Made by a program: the position numbers and the translations under genes
The notes under the pieces: model-generated
What the model saw: the letters and a program-made list of their open reading frames with translations, nothing else
Told to the model about the DNA's origin: nothing
Databases searched by the model: none
Part shown: positions 1-27,340 of the stretch, piece after piece
Position numbering within the stretch: the first letter of the stretch is position 1
Layout of the letters: each line of letters starts with the position of its first letter
IMG/VR virus record: IMGVR_UViG_3300029686_000222
Span: 1 to 36,195 of that record
DNA: 36,195 bases
Reading direction: 5' to 3' (one strand)
From: a virus
Taxonomy: Duplodnaviria; Heunggongvirae; Uroviricota; Caudoviricetes

Positions 1-1206
1 ATGTTTGATCCCCAAAAGGTAAATGAAAATAAAGAGGCATTTTTTCTGTATGTGAATGCCAGTGGTGAACTTTCTGCACAAAGTGTTATCAGGGTTGTAG
101 AGAGAGAAGGATTTGTTCAAGGGTATTCTTTGAGTCGTCGTGGTTTTAGGACTTTTCGTAAAGATAGAATCTTGCGAATGTTTGATTCAGAAGCTGCCCT
201 TAATGAGGCTTTTAATGCATGGAATGATGAACCGCCTCTGACTTCCAGTGATTATATTCCTCCCAAGCAATCCACGTCGAAAAACAAATTCTCTATTTGC
301 TTTACTGGGTTTAAACAATCAGATAGGGCGCGGTTAACAGAAATAGCCGTTAATAATAATTTTGATGTGAAAATGGATGTTTCAAAATCGTTATTCATTC
401 TTTGTGTTGGCGATAATAAGGGATGGAGAAAGGTTCAAAAGGCTAACGATTACGGTGCACTTATTCTGAGCGAAGGACAATTCCTGAGTTTTATAGATAC
501 TGGAGAAATACCTTATAAATCTGAAGATATTGGTGATGCTTATCAACAAAATATAGAAAAGGATGTTGAAGCTTGGCAACGTATGGTTGAAGAGTTTTCT
601 TTAACTGTTCGTACGGTGCGGGAACCAAGGCGAAGCACTGCGCTTATAGCAAATTTTTCTGATGGTTTTGCTGTTGGTTGGCGTTTCGCTGTGAAGGAGG
701 TCTTTAAAGAGGCGCTTGATATAAGGCTGACAAAGGTTACTTATGGTGATTACATTTATGAGGTTTGGACGCAAGGTTCCTCTTACCAGTTTCACCAAGG
801 AGATGTATTTTATAGTGACCGTAGTGGTTATGGTTCTTACTCTGAATTTCTACAAAGAGATGATGCAGTTGTCTTACAGGTAAAATATGAATGTTTTTCT
901 GGTTACGATACTGTTTCCTTGTTTGATGGTTCCTTTAGCGGTGAGCTTTCAGTTAATGGGCGCATAGAACCTCGCATTGTTGAGCGTCTTCCTGTTTTAG
1001 TTGAAAGTCAAACCTATGACCCCGGAAAAATTATTGTGGATGTTTTTATCCCCAATGAAAAAAGAAATAAATTAAAATTGTTTGGTGAGTTGTCGATGAA
1101 CCAAGATGATTTTATTTATCTTTTGCAATCCGGATGTTATTGGCAAAAGAAAAAAGGGGAGCGTCCAGAATTGATAAATATTTTCGATGCTATAAAGAAT
1201 ATGTGA
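1..1206 (+). CDS. WYL-domain + BRCT-domain protein with an uncharacterised ~200-aa C-terminal domain (401 aa); possibly N-terminally truncated by the window edge
   Basis: ORF starts at base 1. N-terminus has a WYL-like signature (GFVQGYSLSRRGFRTFRKDRI, resembling the WYL...R-x-FRldRI core). Residues ~95-165 (FSICFTGFKQSDRARLTEIAVNNNFDVKMDVSKSLFILCVGDNKGWRKVQKANDYGALILSEGQF) match the BRCT fold pattern seen in LigA-type BRCT domains. Markedly AT-rich compared with the prophage. Followed by an intrinsic terminator. Confidence 0.6.
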   Translation: MFDPQKVNENKEAFFLYVNASGELSAQSVIRVVEREGFVQGYSLSRRGFRTFRKDRILRMFDSEAALNEAFNAWNDEPPLTSSDYIPPKQSTSKNKFSICFTGFKQSDRARLTEIAVNNNFDVKMDVSKSLFILCVGDNKGWRKVQKANDYGALILSEGQFLSFIDTGEIPYKSEDIGDAYQQNIEKDVEAWQRMVEEFSLTVRTVREPRRSTALIANFSDGFAVGWRFAVKEVFKEALDIRLTKVTYGDYIYEVWTQGSSYQFHQGDVFYSDRSGYGSYSEFLQRDDAVVLQVKYECFSGYDTVSLFDGSFSGELSVNGRIEPRIVERLPVLVESQTYDPGKIIVDVFIPNEKRNKLKLFGELSMNQDDFIYLLQSGCYWQKKKGERPELINIFDAIKNM

Positions 1207-1338: not shown

Positions 1339-1349
1339 CGCGGTTTCCT

Positions 1350-1490
1350 TACTGCTTACACTGTAAGAACGCCGCAAACTCCGCTCCCCAGAAACTCATC
1401 CGTATCTCACACAGCGAACCGTGCAGCATCCAGATGATGAGGATTGCCGTTACGCAGAACGTAATGGCCGTAAGCGATTTTTGCGACATA
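1350..1490 (-). CDS. Hok/Gef-family type I toxin (46 aa): MSQKSLTAITFCVTAILIIWMLHGSLCEIRMSFWGAEFAAFLQCKQ
   Basis: Hand-translated from the minus strand; not in the ORF track because it is shorter than 60 aa. Single N-terminal TM helix, conserved SLCEIR and AAFLxCK motifs shared with HokA/HokB/Gef. AAGGAG Shine-Dalgarno 9 nt upstream of the ATG. Confidence 0.8.
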
Positions 1491-14820: not shown

Positions 14821-14829
14821 GTCCTGTTA

Positions 14830-14878
14830 ATGTCAAGAATAAGAGGGCTTAATAAGCCTGCAGGAAGGCTTATTAAGC
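14830..14878 (-). terminator. Strong hairpin between endolysin and tail chaperone (attenuator or partial terminator)
   Basis: Perfect 12-bp stem GCTTAATAAGCC / GGCTTATTAAGC with 8-nt loop, followed on the minus strand by CCTCTTATTCTT. Confidence 0.4.
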
Positions 14879-14884
14879 GTAAAA

Positions 14885-15226
14885 TCAGCGCACACCGTCG
14901 TGCTCAAGGCTGAAATGATTGCCATCCGGGCGGTTTTTAAAACGACCGCCCCATGTGCCGCCGAGGGATTCCCAGTACTCGCCCAGTTCGCGGTAAGCCT
15001 CTGTGCGGGTCTGGTATTCACCGTTAATAAACAGATTAAAATCCACCGCCAGTCGCTGGCAGTGCAGACTGTTGGTGATGCCTGATCCCTTTTGTGCGTT
15101 GAGTTTTGCCTGCTCTGGCGTGCGGTACGCCTCACCGAACGTCAGGCCATAACCGCGCTGATGGGCAAACTGGATGAGTTTTCCGATCATGACGGTAAAT
15201 TGTTGTTGCTTATCGGAGAGTTTCAT
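14885..15226 (-). CDS. Endolysin, peptidase M15 family (L-Ala-D-Glu peptidase type), 113 aa
   Basis: Motifs HCQRLAVD...GGRF...DGNHFS are typical of zinc-dependent M15 phage endolysins; AAGGAG RBS. Confidence 0.8.
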   Translation of the reverse strand: MKLSDKQQQFTVMIGKLIQFAHQRGYGLTFGEAYRTPEQAKLNAQKGSGITNSLHCQRLAVDFNLFINGEYQTRTEAYRELGEYWESLGGTWGGRFKNRPDGNHFSLEHDGVR

Positions 15227-15330
15227 TTTTGCTCCTTACGGGGTTGTTGAGGTTTACGCAACCAGCGCCACAACGCCCGGATAATTTTCCAGACAATGGC
15301 AGCGGCTTTCTGATCCCTGCGGGACTGCAT
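15223..15330 (-). CDS. Small cationic amphipathic peptide (35 aa): MQSRRDQKAAAIVWKIIRALWRWLRKPQQPRKEQK; candidate lysis accessory peptide
   Basis: Hand-translated; not in the ORF track. GAGGAG RBS 8 nt upstream; its TGA overlaps the endolysin ATG. Sits between holin and endolysin. Confidence 0.4.
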   Translation of the reverse strand: MQSRRDQKAAAIVWKIIRALWRWLRKPQQPRKEQK

Positions 15331-15335
15331 TGCGG

Positions 15336-15632
15336 TTACTCCTCTTTGTTCTCTTTTTCGTCCAGCTTCCGGCGCATGTGGCGCAGGAAGATTTCCACAA
15401 TCTGGTAACCGGCAACGCCCATTGCGGTACCTGCGCCGGCAATGGCCAGTGGGTCAAGGTTCGGGTAGCGAACCAGCAGGGCGGCGGCAGAAACACCCAG
15501 CGCGCTCCCCAGCAGGGTTCGGCCCACAAACAACCGCAACGTAATCGGTTCTGCGCCAGCCAGCACCCGACTTGCGGCAGCGATTCCGCCCAGAATGCCC
15601 AGGGTGATGATGGTGCGTTCATGCTCCTGCAT
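15336..15632 (-). CDS. Holin (98 aa, three predicted TM helices, charged C-terminus)
   Basis: Three hydrophobic segments (IITLGILGGIAAASRVLAG; LFVGRTLLGSALGVSAAALLV; LAIAGAGTAMGVAGYQIVEIF) and a KLDEKENKEE tail; adjacent to the endolysin. Confidence 0.7.
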   Translation of the reverse strand: MQEHERTIITLGILGGIAAASRVLAGAEPITLRLFVGRTLLGSALGVSAAALLVRYPNLDPLAIAGAGTAMGVAGYQIVEIFLRHMRRKLDEKENKEE

Positions 15633-15635
15633 GGT

Positions 15636-16091
15636 TTACCCCATCAGCCCGCGCACGTCGTTCTCTGAGAGAACGGGCACGCCGTTGATACGCACAAAGT
15701 CAGGGCTTGCCACCACGTACTTGATTTTGTGCGTGGTCAGATCCGCGCTCTCGGTGTCAATGCTTAACAGGTTCGAAAGCATCAGCTCGCAACCGAAGGC
15801 TTCAACGCGGATTTCTTCGGTGCCCGTGTTGGCGTAAAACACAAAATCCATTGGCGGCAGGTCACGCCACGATCCCGCCTGAGCCGCCACTTCCCCGAGC
15901 TGGTTAAAGCTGCGGGTACTCATTTCGATTTCACCTTCGGCACTGACAGGGCCGCGCAGTTTGCCGTCAGGGATGCCACGGGTTTTGGCCACGGCGCTTT
16001 CGTCGCTGATATCCAGCGAAATGTTTTTTACGCGGATATCCGTTCCGCCAACATAAACATCAAAGGCCATGCCGTTAATGCGGGTTGTCAT
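15636..16091 (-). CDS. Tail tube protein (151 aa)
   Basis: Size and position immediately downstream of the sheath gene; GGAGGAG RBS. Confidence 0.7.
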   Translation of the reverse strand: MTTRINGMAFDVYVGGTDIRVKNISLDISDESAVAKTRGIPDGKLRGPVSAEGEIEMSTRSFNQLGEVAAQAGSWRDLPPMDFVFYANTGTEEIRVEAFGCELMLSNLLSIDTESADLTTHKIKYVVASPDFVRINGVPVLSENDVRGLMG

Positions 16092-17236
16092 GCGTTCTCC
16101 TCCAGAGATTTGTCCAGCTGAATGCCCACTTTGATGGTTTTGGGGCAGGCGTAAGGGCGGACAACAATGCTGATGCTGACCGTCTTTTCGTCCTGCCAGG
16201 TGATGGCCACATCGCCTTTTTGTGGCGATTTCACTTCGCCCGGAAAGGTGACACCGTTAATCTGCGTGGATTTCGCCATGGTACGCAGCGGGCGGGCAAA
16301 CAGCGTTTCATGTGCGGCAATGCTGCCCGGTGTGCTGTTCAGTGAGCGATCGGCAATTTTGGGGATGGCCATCAGCCGTACGCGGCGCGCCACCTTATCA
16401 GCAATGCGGACATGTTCGATGACGTTGTAGTCCCCGCCTTCCACCTCAAGTGTCACGCCGTCGGCCCAGTAAAGGCCGTCATAGTCGGCATACCACATGG
16501 GCACGCTGTAGCGGGCGGTTGCCAGCGCCTGCAGGGTGGCGAGATCAATTGCCTGTCCCGCGCTGTCCTTCGGGCGCTCTGTGGTTTTCAGTGCGGACAG
16601 CGCCCCGGTTGCCACACGTGCCGGACTGTCAGCAATGGTGACGGCGCTGTTACACAGGCGACCAGCAAGAACGCCCGGTTCAAATCCAAAAATCTCCGGA
16701 ACCAGCATGACCTGCGGGGCTGCAATGCCTTTCTGTAGTGCGGTCAGTTCGGCAACGTATTCCGCCCAGGTTTTGCTGTGGTTGTTGGCGGCGATGGTCA
16801 GGATGAACCAGATGCGGCGCTGATATTTATTGATGATGGTCTGACGTAACGCCTGTATGGCGTTGATATCATCCTTCGTGCTGACCGGCTCGGTGATCAC
16901 CACGCCTTCAACTGAAACAGTTTCCTGAGCCGCCAGTACGGCGTTCTGCCATGCCTGGCAGGCTGGCGTCGCTTCTTTGCCCCTGCCTGCTTCCGGCAGA
17001 ACGGCAACATAGAAAAAGGCATTCTGTCCGGCATTGGTCAGTGCTGACTGAAGGAAATTCTTCAGCGGGCTGGCGTTCGTTCCCAGCAATTCATCCAGAT
17101 CACTGTTGGCATTGACCGGCAGAACCTTACCTTTGTTGTTTTGTGCATTGCCCACAAACAGCAGCGTATTTTCCACGCCGTCCGGCGAGCTACTGAACGT
17201 GTTGTACTGTTCAATCGTGACAGATGGCCAGGTCAT
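16088..17236 (-). CDS. Contractile tail sheath protein (~382 aa)
   Basis: Track ORF 16088-17368; start taken at the ATG with AGGAGA RBS (MTWPSVTIEQ...). Size and position upstream of the tube gene. Confidence 0.75.
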   Translation of the reverse strand: MTWPSVTIEQYNTFSSSPDGVENTLLFVGNAQNNKGKVLPVNANSDLDELLGTNASPLKNFLQSALTNAGQNAFFYVAVLPEAGRGKEATPACQAWQNAVLAAQETVSVEGVVITEPVSTKDDINAIQALRQTIINKYQRRIWFILTIAANNHSKTWAEYVAELTALQKGIAAPQVMLVPEIFGFEPGVLAGRLCNSAVTIADSPARVATGALSALKTTERPKDSAGQAIDLATLQALATARYSVPMWYADYDGLYWADGVTLEVEGGDYNVIEHVRIADKVARRVRLMAIPKIADRSLNSTPGSIAAHETLFARPLRTMAKSTQINGVTFPGEVKSPQKGDVAITWQDEKTVSISIVVRPYACPKTIKVGIQLDKSLEENA

Positions 17237-17255
17237 AATTTGTCTCCTGATTTTG

Positions 17256-17969
17256 TTATCTCGTGCCGCCGTAATGCAGGCTGCGCAACTGCGCTTCCAG
17301 AATGCGGGTAAATTCAGCATCGCTGGCGCCCAGAAATGCGCGGGAGGGGATTTTGATTTCCCATACACGCTTTTTCTGCTCGCCTTTCAGAATGCTGATC
17401 ACCAGCCCGGCCTGCGCCATACTCATGTTTTCCATAATCCATTTCAGGGAGGGCTTTCTGCGTCCCCTGCGTCCGGTTTTTTTGCTGACCGCTCCGATGG
17501 GTGCCCGAAACCCCAGAGAAAGAAGCCGCTCCGCCTGCCGTCGTGTGGCGGGGCGGGTGCGCATGGCTTCGTTGTCCCGGCGCTTTGTGGCGCGGCCTTT
17601 GATGATTGCGCCATGCTGTTGTACCCATGCGACCGCCCCACCATGAGAGCCGGTGTTGTAATTCCCTTTTTTAAAGAAAAGGCGGACACTTTTCCCGTTG
17701 CCGTCAATCCTGATGGCCAGCAGTTTCGGCAGTCCCAGCAGCATTTTGTTTTTATACCTGCCGCTGGCTTTATCCGGTCTTTTTCGTGGTGCCCAGGCTG
17801 CCCCCTCCGGTGTTCGCTGTGCTTTCACATTGCGTCGAGCAGCCGGTATCAGGCCGTATTTCGCAATGCGAACCAGCAGCTTTCTGGCCTTTGCCGGTGG
17901 AAGTTCTGCCTCTCTGATGGCGCGACGAACCTGCCGGAGTTGTGACTCGTTAATCACGGGGCGCGTCAT
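17256..17969 (-). CDS. Virion morphogenesis / tail completion protein (P2 gpS-like), 237 aa
   Basis: Highly basic protein between the gpR-like and sheath genes; resembles the phage virion-morphogenesis (gpS) family. Confidence 0.55.
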   Translation of the reverse strand: MTRPVINESQLRQVRRAIREAELPPAKARKLLVRIAKYGLIPAARRNVKAQRTPEGAAWAPRKRPDKASGRYKNKMLLGLPKLLAIRIDGNGKSVRLFFKKGNYNTGSHGGAVAWVQQHGAIIKGRATKRRDNEAMRTRPATRRQAERLLSLGFRAPIGAVSKKTGRRGRRKPSLKWIMENMSMAQAGLVISILKGEQKKRVWEIKIPSRAFLGASDAEFTRILEAQLRSLHYGGTR

Positions 17970-25592: not shown

Positions 25593-25970
25593 TTAAATAT
25601 TTTCGTTACGAAGCATGGCTGCGCGGCAGGCGTTCCAGCCTGTAGCGTATGCAGCCGCTTTGCTGCTGCCTTCAACTGGCGCATCCTGCCAATACATTTC
25701 ATCCGGCACTACCGGTGCTGGCAGCTCGCGATACAGCGGGATTACACGACGCGAGTCTGCGTATTTATCTGGCGGACACTGAAATATCTCACCAAAACCA
25801 TACTCCCTGACATCTTGCAGTTCCTCGTCATCAGTCCATGCCACCGGTTCTGCTTCCAGCGAGGCTAACGCTATTTCATAAGCCCGGCGCTCAATATTGT
25901 CTCGCACGTCCAGGCTGCCTATGCGCTCTTTGATTTCTTTAATCAGTTCTTTGTCGGTGAAAGTTGTCAT
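25593..25970 (-). CDS. Hypothetical acidic protein (125 aa) in the tin/old-equivalent hotspot
   Basis: ATG with RBS; C-terminal AYATGWNACRAAML block seems familiar from phage accessory proteins, but no family could be assigned from memory. Confidence 0.55.
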   Translation of the reverse strand: MTTFTDKELIKEIKERIGSLDVRDNIERRAYEIALASLEAEPVAWTDDEELQDVREYGFGEIFQCPPDKYADSRRVIPLYRELPAPVVPDEMYWQDAPVEGSSKAAAYATGWNACRAAMLRNENI

Positions 25971-26064
25971 GTGTTAGTCCTTATTCTGCTGTGCTTTCAA
26001 CTGATGAGGGGAACAAAATCGTTTCAGTGCGTTGGCATCAGGGCGGATGCGCCCTGATGTTGTG

Positions 26065-26376
26065 TTATTCGGGAAATAACGCCCGGATATTCCCGGCCAT
26101 CTGGCTGGTTATCTGTGTGGTTGGCGTTGGAGGTGTCGCAGGGCGTTCTGCTCTGGTTTGTGTCACTGATAACGCTTCATCATCAGCCCATGCAGCCAGT
26201 CGGTAAGCCTCTGCCGGATTCATTTTCAGAAGTGCCAGCCCGGCCAGAAAAGCCACGCGTTGGCCGCTTTTGCGGGCTTCTGGTGTAAGGCTGTCCAGCC
26301 AGGCGCATGCTTCGCCTTCGTTCTTGACGGCGGCGGGCTTCAGATAGAAACTTATCCGTCTGGTTGGTGTCGTCAT
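26065..26376 (-). CDS. parR: ParR-like plasmid partition adaptor (DNA-binding), ~103 aa
   Basis: RRISFYLKPAAVKNEGEACAWLDSLTPEARKSGQRVAFLAGLALL aligns with plasmid R1 ParR (RRTIAFKLNPDVNQTDKIVCDTLDSIPQGERSRLNRAALTAGLAL); AAGGAG RBS; 4 bp after the parM stop. Confidence 0.8.
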   Translation of the reverse strand: MTTPTRRISFYLKPAAVKNEGEACAWLDSLTPEARKSGQRVAFLAGLALLKMNPAEAYRLAAWADDEALSVTQTRAERPATPPTPTTQITSQMAGNIRALFPE

Positions 26377-26380
26377 TGGT

Positions 26381-27340
26381 TTACTCCTTGTCCATTGCGT
26401 ACAGCCCATTAACCAGAGCAAACTGTGGCACCCTGTCCGCGATGAAAGTCGCATTAACTCCGCAGGCTTCGCGGATAGCGGGTGCCACAATCTCCGCCCC
26501 GCCACCGACAACCATCACCCGCCCGTAACCCGAAAAACCCGCCAGCGCGCGGATCACGCGTTGTTTCAGTGTTTCTTCCTTTTCACGAATAACCGCCATC
26601 AGGCCGGCGTAATGCGCGTCATTGTGGATGTGCTGGCGCAGCCAGGCTTCATCGTGGCGATGTTCGATAATGGTATTGGCGATATGGTGACTGGTACGCA
26701 TACCGTTGGTGGCCATCACTGACAGTACGGCATCGGCTATCAGGGAAACGCCTACGTGTGGATCGCAAAATACCTGGCTGATACCTGCCAGTTGTCCCTG
26801 AACCTTTGCCACATCCAGCGTGGTTCCGCCCAAATCCACAATCAGCAGGGATTCAAACGGACTCATGTCAGCCAGTGCCTTAAAGCCAGCCGGAATGGAT
26901 TCAGGCATAACCCGCACGTTACGGATAGTGAATGCCTCACCGTTCTGGTACTCCACCGGGCGCATGACGTTCGCTTTTTTGCGGTTGATGTTGGCCATGT
27001 CCGGCTGTGCGTTTGTGTCGAAATACTCGCTCAGTGGCAGGGTGACAACCACATCCACCTCCTGTGGCGTGATGCCTGATTTGACCAGCGCATGATGAAT
27101 GGCAATGACATTCACATCGCTGTACTGGTATTGCGTGTCGGTCGTCTGGACAAAGCGATCGCTGACCGGATCAAAACCATAGCGCACGCCATCAAGCATG
27201 TAGTTCGCGGGCTGCGTGCCACCGAACGGCGCAGACCATTCCGACTTGAAGCTGTTCGGGCTGATGGCGTTGCGGCGTTCGCCGTTCTCAGTCCATGCCA
27301 GCTTGATGTTGGTGGAGCCGTCGTCGATACAAATTTTCAT
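26381..27340 (-). CDS. parM: ParM/StbA-like actin-type partition ATPase, 319 aa
   Basis: N-terminal phosphate-1 motif MKICIDDGSTNIKLAW (R1 ParM: FIDDGSTNIKLQW); later LIVDLGGTTLDV and VVGGGA motifs typical of the actin/ParM fold. Confidence 0.85.
   Translation of the reverse strand: MKICIDDGSTNIKLAWTENGERRNAISPNSFKSEWSAPFGGTQPANYMLDGVRYGFDPVSDRFVQTTDTQYQYSDVNVIAIHHALVKSGITPQEVDVVVTLPLSEYFDTNAQPDMANINRKKANVMRPVEYQNGEAFTIRNVRVMPESIPAGFKALADMSPFESLLIVDLGGTTLDVAKVQGQLAGISQVFCDPHVGVSLIADAVLSVMATNGMRTSHHIANTIIEHRHDEAWLRQHIHNDAHYAGLMAVIREKEETLKQRVIRALAGFSGYGRVMVVGGGAEIVAPAIREACGVNATFIADRVPQFALVNGLYAMDKE

Follow-up and report, generated by a model that had tools for sequence, protein, structure and literature searches.

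A candidate disruptin gene between holin and endolysin in a spanin-less HP1-like prophage

The viral record IMGVR_UViG_3300029686_000222, whose 36,195 nucleotides are referred to here as the window, is an HP1-like (Peduoviridae) prophage carrying HP1_Orf24, HP1_ORF34, a P2-family capsid module and an integrase. All of its late genes lie on the minus strand, where the block from tail sheath to tape measure spans positions 17368 down to 12243. Read along that strand, the order is tail sheath, tail tube, holin, a 35-residue open reading frame (ORF), an M15 endolysin, a 64-nt spacer, tail assembly chaperone, a DUF6890 gene and tape measure (Table 1). The small ORF encodes a cationic peptide, MQSRRDQKAAAIVWKIIRALWRWLRKPQQPRKEQK. 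No spanin gene was found in the window, and the peptide is best read as a candidate disruptin, unrelated in sequence to gp28 of phage phiKT, that may disrupt the outer membrane during lysis as spanins do in sister phages.

The original prediction for this DNA had placed a holin, a peptide and an endolysin at these positions, and sequence, Pfam and PHROG comparisons showed that its coordinates and descriptions are correct on the minus strand. It had also proposed that the peptide ORF has its own ribosome-binding site (RBS) and is stop-start coupled to the endolysin. Both features are present: a GAGGAG Shine-Dalgarno sequence precedes the peptide start, and the peptide stop overlaps the endolysin start in the tetranucleotide ATGA.

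Table 1. Positions of the lysis genes, their translation signals and the flanking tail genes in the window.
Feature	Position	Strand	Assignment or remark
Tail sheath	first gene of 17368-12243 block	minus	DUF2586; PHROG tail sheath
Tail tube, 151 aa	15636-16091	minus	Pfam Phage_HP1_Orf24, E=1.7e-50; PHROG 1182 tail protein
Holin, 98 aa	15336-15632	minus	Pfam PF04550 (Phage_holin_3_2), E=5.5e-28; PHROG 175 holin; HP1-type ('phage holin family 2')
Peptide Shine-Dalgarno, GAGGAG	15339-15344	minus	last two holin codons; 8 nt 5' of ATG (15328-15330)
Cationic peptide ORF, 35 aa	15223-15330	minus	no Pfam family above threshold, no PHROG
Endolysin Shine-Dalgarno, AAGGAG	15232-15237	minus	within C-terminal codons of peptide ORF
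Stop-start overlap, ATGA	15223-15226	minus	peptide stop TGA (15223-15225), endolysin ATG (15224-15226)
Endolysin, 113 aa	14885-15226	minus	Pfam Peptidase_M15_4, E=1.4e-11; PHROG endolysin families
Spacer, 64 nt, with hairpin	14821-14884 (hairpin 14847-14878)	minus	
Tail assembly chaperone, 97 aa	14527-14820	minus	Pfam Phage_TAC_10, E=2.7e-25

The lysis genes had been singled out for lying between the tube and chaperone genes rather than in the separate Y-K-lysA-lysB position of P2. The location and the contrast with P2 are real, but the arrangement is the standard one for HP1-type phages and is not unusual. The order in HP1 is orf23 (sheath), orf24 (tube), hol, lys, orf25 (Rz-like spanin), orf26 and orf27. 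In Salmonella phage SI7 and Yersinia phage vB_YenM_324 (YenM324) the order is tube, holin, endolysin, inner-membrane spanin (i-spanin) and chaperone, with an outer-membrane spanin (o-spanin) annotated too in YenM324. Cronobacter phage ESSI-2 likewise has hol-lys-spanin between the tube and chaperone genes. A lysis cassette inside the tail operon is the long-standing norm for the HP1 branch of the family. The window shares with HP1, SI7, YenM324 and ESSI-2 the location between the tube and chaperone/tape-measure genes and the holin family: a PF04550 holin is followed by an endolysin, between a tube gene of the HP1 orf24 family and the chaperone gene. The endolysins of SI7 and YenM324 are orthologous to that of the window (76-81% identical). 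The HP1-type phages differ in that a spanin pair directly follows the endolysin, while holin and endolysin have no ORF between them. Instead, the window has a 64-nt hairpin spacer after the endolysin, where Rz-like spanin genes would be expected directly 3' of it, and the 35-residue ORF before it.

Spanins were sought by homology, by lipobox and by topology. Nine i- and o-spanins from five relatives were compared by tblastn with the window and with a complete E. coli copy of the prophage, and all matches had E values of at least 0.02, which is noise. All six frames were scanned for lipoboxes, first strictly and then with relaxed criteria, and the only hits were ORFs antisense to known genes and a 38-residue ORF in the cargo region without a Shine-Dalgarno sequence. 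The same scan recovered the o-spanins in 5/5 control loci. No lipobox ORF lies on a coding-consistent strand of the window, as would be needed for a unimolecular spanin of the T1 gp11 type. For a two-component spanin, the gap between endolysin and chaperone is merely 64 nt, and no i-spanin or o-spanin ORF was found in the window. In a greedy gene map of the window, no unassigned protein has an N-terminal transmembrane domain (TMD), with or without a coiled coil, or a lipobox. The copy in E. coli ETEC1716 was followed from the integrase to the host gene raiA, and it contains no spanin annotated by the Prokaryotic Genome Annotation Pipeline (PGAP). The claim that no spanin is visible is borne out in the window, and neither the rest of the window nor the complete E. 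coli copy of the prophage yielded a spanin pair. That the peptide stands in place of spanins, as had been suggested, is right insofar as a cationic amphipathic peptide occurs where spanins are absent; the slot is a different one, as the peptide gene lies upstream of the endolysin.

Relatives in IMG/VR were gathered by holin and by an alignment of orthologous endolysins, and counts refer to the best 80 endolysin loci. The holin scan was seeded with a four-sequence alignment, as a six-holin alignment was too divergent to serve as seed. With the holin as query, representative genomes gave a single locus, in E. albertii. In 65/80 loci the endolysin is 77-81% identical to that of the window, and the last 4 or 14 nt of the holin gene overlap the beginning of the endolysin gene. 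All 65 lack an ORF between holin and endolysin, and in all of them an i-spanin with an N-terminal TMD begins at the endolysin stop. Each of the 65 also has a lipobox-bearing o-spanin, 63 being detected by the scan and the other 2 by eye. Conversely, both spanins are absent and a small cationic ORF lies between holin and endolysin in 15/15 loci that are of the window type or of a more divergent type, L027. The peptide and the spanins are mutually exclusive in distribution.

The small ORF is very probably a real gene, fast-evolving and under modest constraint. It was present in 24/24 related loci first examined (E. coli, E. albertii and IMG/VR) and in five further metagenome loci. The ORF is kept in every related locus of the lineage of the window, and the concern that it might not be conserved in related phages was not realized. 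Three sub-lineages hold an ORF in the same slot: the window/E. coli type, L190 and L027. The L190 peptide, MKLTDRQQKRAAIAWKILRTLWRWLCKPQKTSKDKNETL, has 39 residues, is 63% identical to that of the window and follows an AAGGA RBS at 6 nt; its neighbours are closer to those of the window, at 83% (holin), 95% (endolysin) and 92% (tube) identity. The L027 peptide, MTGKKASPGILSGMRQFAVKVWQLLRSLQKLRNSMNGKTRP, has 41 residues and is about 31% identical, with W14, R18, L20 and L24 aligned. It starts with GTG, has a GGAGGA RBS at 8 nt and is flanked by proteins 71-87% identical to those of the window; a near-identical E. coli protein is annotated as hypothetical. Both loci are without spanins. A start codon and an RBS of its own were found wherever the ORF was read (the window, L027 and L190). 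Within and among lineages, length changes come in multiples of three: L018 has lost one codon and L196 three, and L190 has gained four and L027 six. One other frame of the spacer between holin and endolysin likewise lacks stops in the window, which makes openness by itself weak evidence.

Substitutions were counted by the Nei-Gojobori method among 16 haplotypes. In the peptide frame the proportion of synonymous differences (pS) is 0.20 and that of nonsynonymous differences (pN) is 0.041, with a pairwise ratio of nonsynonymous to synonymous rates (dN/dS) of about 0.18. Read in either of its two other frames, this DNA gives a pS about equal to pN, at about 0.08. The dN/dS of the holin is about 0.04 and that of the endolysin about 0.07.

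The origin of the peptide was sought by tblastn against all spanin-bearing relatives and phiKT, and no match was found below E about 0.2. Full-text literature searches for the peptide motif likewise gave no match. As a single query the peptide was lengthened by six upstream in-frame residues. A profile search of 1.84 billion proteins returned P0005, P0007 and the useful P0008, together with a spurious repetitive protein of 1059 residues, P0006.

The peptide of the window has a net charge of +9, three tryptophans and a hydrophobic moment of 0.635 (18-residue window, Fauchere-Pliska scale). It has no transmembrane segment, signal peptide or lipobox and is an ORF separate from the holin. AlphaFold2 predicted one helix at residues 3-24 followed by a disordered tail (mean predicted local distance difference test score 73). 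Across the lineages the charge stays between +7 and +9 and the moment between 0.51 and 0.64, despite sequence drift. On the same scale magainin 2 scores 0.52, melittin 0.55, cecropin A 0.62, LL-37 0.78 and phiKT gp28 0.52. Chance levels were estimated in two ways. The observed moment was reached by 79/5000 shuffles of the peptide. Among 188 ORFs of 28-45 codons in the six frames of the window, 4 have a charge of at least +7 and a moment of at least 0.5, and only the peptide ORF combines a charge of at least +9 with a moment of at least 0.6. For a single sequence this is roughly a 1-2% event, and the stronger evidence is therefore comparative.

The holin covers positions 1-85 of the 86 in the PF04550 profile, equals the holins of relatives in length and is little altered relative to those of spanin-bearing relatives. 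Since it matches the profile end to end and has the length of its relatives, an origin of the peptide as a C-terminal holin tail cut off by a nonsense mutation was rejected. A 122-residue ORF at 15254-15622 (minus strand), which overlies the holin in another frame, is open in relatives as well (122-128 residues) but was not accepted as a gene, because it has no signal peptide, lipobox or Shine-Dalgarno sequence, has the composition of an off-frame translation (rich in W, P, C and R) and overlies a strongly constrained holin frame. The endolysin is an M15 metallopeptidase without a signal or signal-arrest-release sequence. Its H55, D62, H104 and H109 are invariant among six orthologues, as expected of the M15 histidine and aspartate ligands, and it is orthologous across the peptide-bearing and spanin-bearing groups (75-87% identity). 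A phmmer comparison of the endolysin with PDB sequences gave no match, and no solved structure is close enough to be found in that way.

The nearest known counterpart is phiKT gp28, to our knowledge the sole characterised non-spanin outer-membrane disruptor of a tailed phage. In the work of Holt et al. (bioRxiv 10.1101/515445), gp28 has 56 residues and a charge of +7 and is amphipathic, and its gene lies between those of the endolysin gp27 and the holin gp29. It complements a lambda Rz/Rz1 defect, and synthetic gp28 is as active as LL-37 (bioRxiv 10.1101/515445). Like gp28, the peptide of the window is small and cationic, is predicted to form an amphipathic helix and has no signal sequence, TMD or lipobox. 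In both phages the peptide gene lies between the holin and endolysin genes, no spanin is present and the holin belongs to PF04550; the window holin is 29% identical to gp29 over 75 residues (L029, phiKT 37282-37665; pairwise E=1e-12). The two systems differ in peptide length (35 versus 56 residues) and in gene order, which is holin-peptide-endolysin here and endolysin-peptide-holin in phiKT. They also differ in the endolysin, as the M15 enzyme is not homologous to gp27, and in the phage itself, a temperate HP1-like myovirus as opposed to a virulent podophage (Autographiviridae).

Other membrane-active proteins allow a wider comparison. The spanins lambda Rz/Rz1 and T1 gp11 have the same presumed job, removal of the outer-membrane barrier in the last step of lysis, and are encoded in the same cassette. 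However, they are anchored in the membrane by a TMD and/or a lipoylated cysteine, span the periplasm and fuse the membranes; the peptide of the window has neither kind of anchor and lacks the length to cross the periplasm. Helical cationic antimicrobial peptides (LL-37, cecropin A, magainin 2, melittin and Trp/Arg-rich peptides) are comparable to it in length, charge and moment, and for it too a single amphipathic helix is predicted. They are secreted for host defence or as venom and attack cells from the outside, whereas the phage peptide would be synthesised within the very cell whose lysis it aids.

The window has several sequence features expected of a disruptin system: a small, strongly cationic peptide, predicted to be an amphipathic helix and lacking a membrane-targeting signal, is encoded in a lysis cassette of a prophage in which no spanin was found. 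The favoured explanation, which we hold to be about evenly balanced between right and wrong, is a three-gene lysis cassette of holin, cationic amphipathic peptide as outer-membrane disruptor, and soluble M15 endolysin. The disruptin function is inferred because the peptide and the spanins are mutually exclusive in distribution and because of the physico-chemistry of the peptide and the position of its gene. On the same grounds the disruptin-type concept of the original prediction gains support. The three proteins would be translated from one late transcript of the tail operon, the peptide from its own RBS and coupled to the endolysin. The peptide would build up in the cytoplasm or on the inner membrane. 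Triggering of the holin would then let endolysin and peptide into the periplasm, or the peptide may cross earlier, as proposed for gp28. The M15 endolysin would cut the peptidoglycan, and the peptide, as a surface-active helix of about residues 3-24, may then bind the anionic lipopolysaccharide leaflet and weaken the outer membrane, the role of Rz/Rz1-type spanins in the sister phages.

Peptide-bearing loci are closest to each other, with endolysins 87-95% identical among themselves as against 75-81% identical to those of spanin-bearing loci. Given this pattern and a spanin in the outgroup HP1, the simplest history is a single swap in a single sub-clade, and the change from spanins to peptide appears to have been a single evolutionary event. 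All the other relatives that were examined have spanins, as does HP1; the pair was therefore probably present in the ancestor and disappeared from one Escherichia-associated sub-clade. We consider it plausible, with somewhat less than an even chance, that the peptide founds a second disruptin family, which would have arisen or been captured at the holin-endolysin junction and displaced the ancestral spanins, with the holin and endolysin orthologues retained.

Several observations weigh against a disruptin. The anticorrelation with spanins probably reflects one evolutionary event rather than many independent ones. Purifying selection on the peptide is weak: distinct variants number 12 synonymous and 14 nonsynonymous where 29% synonymous is expected (p=0.047; no signal in the other frames). 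The peptide of L006 stops after 27 residues (helix intact), three loci are short of the last 2 residues, and a frameshift variant, P0004, occurs in the protein database. PGAP left the ORF uncalled in E. coli. A charge of at least +7 is found in 28/188 (15%) of the small ORFs of the window and is common in non-coding frames. A megablast of the cassette against cultured phages gave no match, and no isolated phage in that collection has this version. The peptide also gave no match to gp28 by blastp at word size 2 and E <= 100. As the disruptin class is defined by function, the lack of homology to gp28 excludes common descent, not a shared mechanism.

Alternatively, the ORF may be a translated relay or spacer without a peptide function, left by the rearrangement that removed the spanins. 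Outer-membrane disruption would then be dispensable for the phage in nature or passive, and the ORF would stay open just to carry the endolysin RBS and couple endolysin translation to that of the holin. The ORF is indeed coupled to both neighbours and contains the endolysin RBS, the peptide evolves far faster than its neighbours (63% versus 83-95% identity in L190, about 31% versus 71-87% in L027), the site-based selection signal is marginal and C-terminal truncations are tolerated. In the survey of Kongari et al., 91/677 phages, or about 13% of those with Gram-negative hosts, were without an identifiable spanin, and HP1/HP2 and ESSI-2 counted as spanin-bearing (PMC6139136). Overall, the share of such phages without a recognisable spanin is about 13-15%. 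Whether spanin-less phages generally encode disruptins was described as open in a January 2026 paper, which also noted that the diversity of disruptins hampers their prediction (PMC12819732). A relay is not needed, however, because a direct holin-endolysin overlap of 4 or 14 nt suffices in the spanin-bearing relatives. An amphipathic, cationic, tryptophan-containing core is kept in three sub-lineages despite divergence, the synonymous excess is confined to the peptide frame, and indels between lineages are all in frame. A relay without peptide function is unlikely on this evidence, although it is the strongest of the competing explanations.

Somewhat less likely still is that the peptide is a genuine lysis factor with the inner membrane or the holin as its target, serving as a timing factor, a depolariser that triggers the holin or an antiholin-like regulator. 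The peptide gene directly follows the holin gene and is coupled to it, and cationic amphipathic helices bind anionic bilayers of any kind. In the phiKT model, gp28 likewise resides in the inner membrane, which it gradually weakens ahead of triggering (bioRxiv 10.1101/515445). Small lysis factors at the level of the holin are known, for example Lcc6 of LambdaSo. But the peptide has no transmembrane segment, and the holin is little changed compared with those of spanin-bearing relatives. The peptide occurs solely where spanins have been lost, a pattern not expected of a timing factor.

It is improbable that a non-canonical disruptor was missed, be it a spanin of odd topology, one encoded outside the window or one supplied by another prophage, with the small ORF being incidental. 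The searches rest on homology and on rules for lipoboxes and N-terminal TMDs, and other spanin topologies are conceivable (Kongari et al., PMC6139136). The window ends at the integrase stop and within cargo genes, leaving a few bases of the prophage ends unseen. The E. coli copy is complete from integrase to raiA, though, and has no annotated spanin, lipobox or tblastn match; the unassigned ORFs of the window show neither a TMD with coiled coil nor a lipobox; and spanins of this phage family always lie directly after the endolysin.

The spacer after the endolysin, which occupies the position of the spanin genes in relatives, contains a terminator-like hairpin (-21.7 kcal/mol, z = -4.5) whose 13-bp stem is closed by a 6-nt loop and followed by a U-rich tail. 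Each of the three sub-lineages with the peptide has the hairpin, changes in one arm being matched in the other, and it was not found in the spanin-bearing relatives checked. The spacer and hairpin matched no known RNA family in Rfam. With one copy in the window and one per prophage in E. coli, the hairpin was rejected as a dispersed repeat of the repetitive extragenic palindromic (REP) or miniature inverted-repeat transposable element (MITE) kind. Possible roles are those of a terminator or attenuator separating the lysis genes from the distal tail genes, or of an mRNA stabiliser; alternatively, it may be a scar of recombination. That the peptide is an arginine-rich RNA-binding protein acting on this hairpin, tuning termination or mRNA stability between lysis and distal tail genes, is very improbable: hairpin and peptide co-occur in three sub-lineages and are both absent from the spanin-bearing relatives checked, the hairpin shows compensatory changes and the N-terminal SRRDQKAAA..W bears what we take to be a loose resemblance to the arginine-rich motifs of N proteins, but the hairpin differs from boxB-type targets in its long, A-U-rich stem, its loop is not conserved, the peptide lacks a domain that could contact RNA polymerase or Nus factors, and its strongly hydrophobic face (I, V, W, L) suits membrane binding better.

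Other features of the window were noted outside the lysis genes. The sheath ORF (16088-17368, minus strand; 426 residues) begins with GTG and overlaps the upstream gene by 113 nt; its true start is probably an internal ATG near 17236, because the E. coli homologue is annotated at 382 residues. The cargo region past the last tail gene contains a type I toxin gene at 1349-1489 (minus strand), a 46-residue ORF with an N-terminal TMD and a Pfam Hok/Gef match (E=4.1e-7, above the curated cut-off). At the edge of the window a 401-residue ORF (1-1206, plus strand) has a borderline BRCT match (E=3.4e-4, just under the Pfam cut-off) and is presumably prophage cargo. The E. coli copy has other cargo there: a YafO toxin, an ATP-dependent nuclease and a methyltransferase fragment. 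By position and size, the ORF at 26381-27340 (minus strand) corresponds to a gene called by PGAP as plasmid segregation protein ParM in the E. coli copy. A partitioning/stability gene adjoins the ParM gene there; in the window, ORFs lie just below the one at 26381-27340, at about 25593-26380. ParM and partitioning genes are unusual equipment for an integrated P2/HP1-like prophage.

If the candidate disruptin is what it appears to be, this lineage and its sister phages would represent a natural 'isogenic' swap from spanins to a disruptin, and both solutions to the outer-membrane barrier would be exchangeable over short evolutionary distances. The sister phages, with an orthologous endolysin, a holin of the same family and spanins, are built-in natural controls. 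The peptide would be a second disruptin candidate, and because it occurs in E. coli and its close relatives, complementation of lambda Rz/Rz1 can be assayed there directly. Confirmation would add a short peptide rich in tryptophan and arginine, with likely outer-membrane activity, to the antimicrobial toolbox. It would also provide a comparative rule for recognizing disruptins, namely a small cationic ORF gained exactly where spanins vanish.

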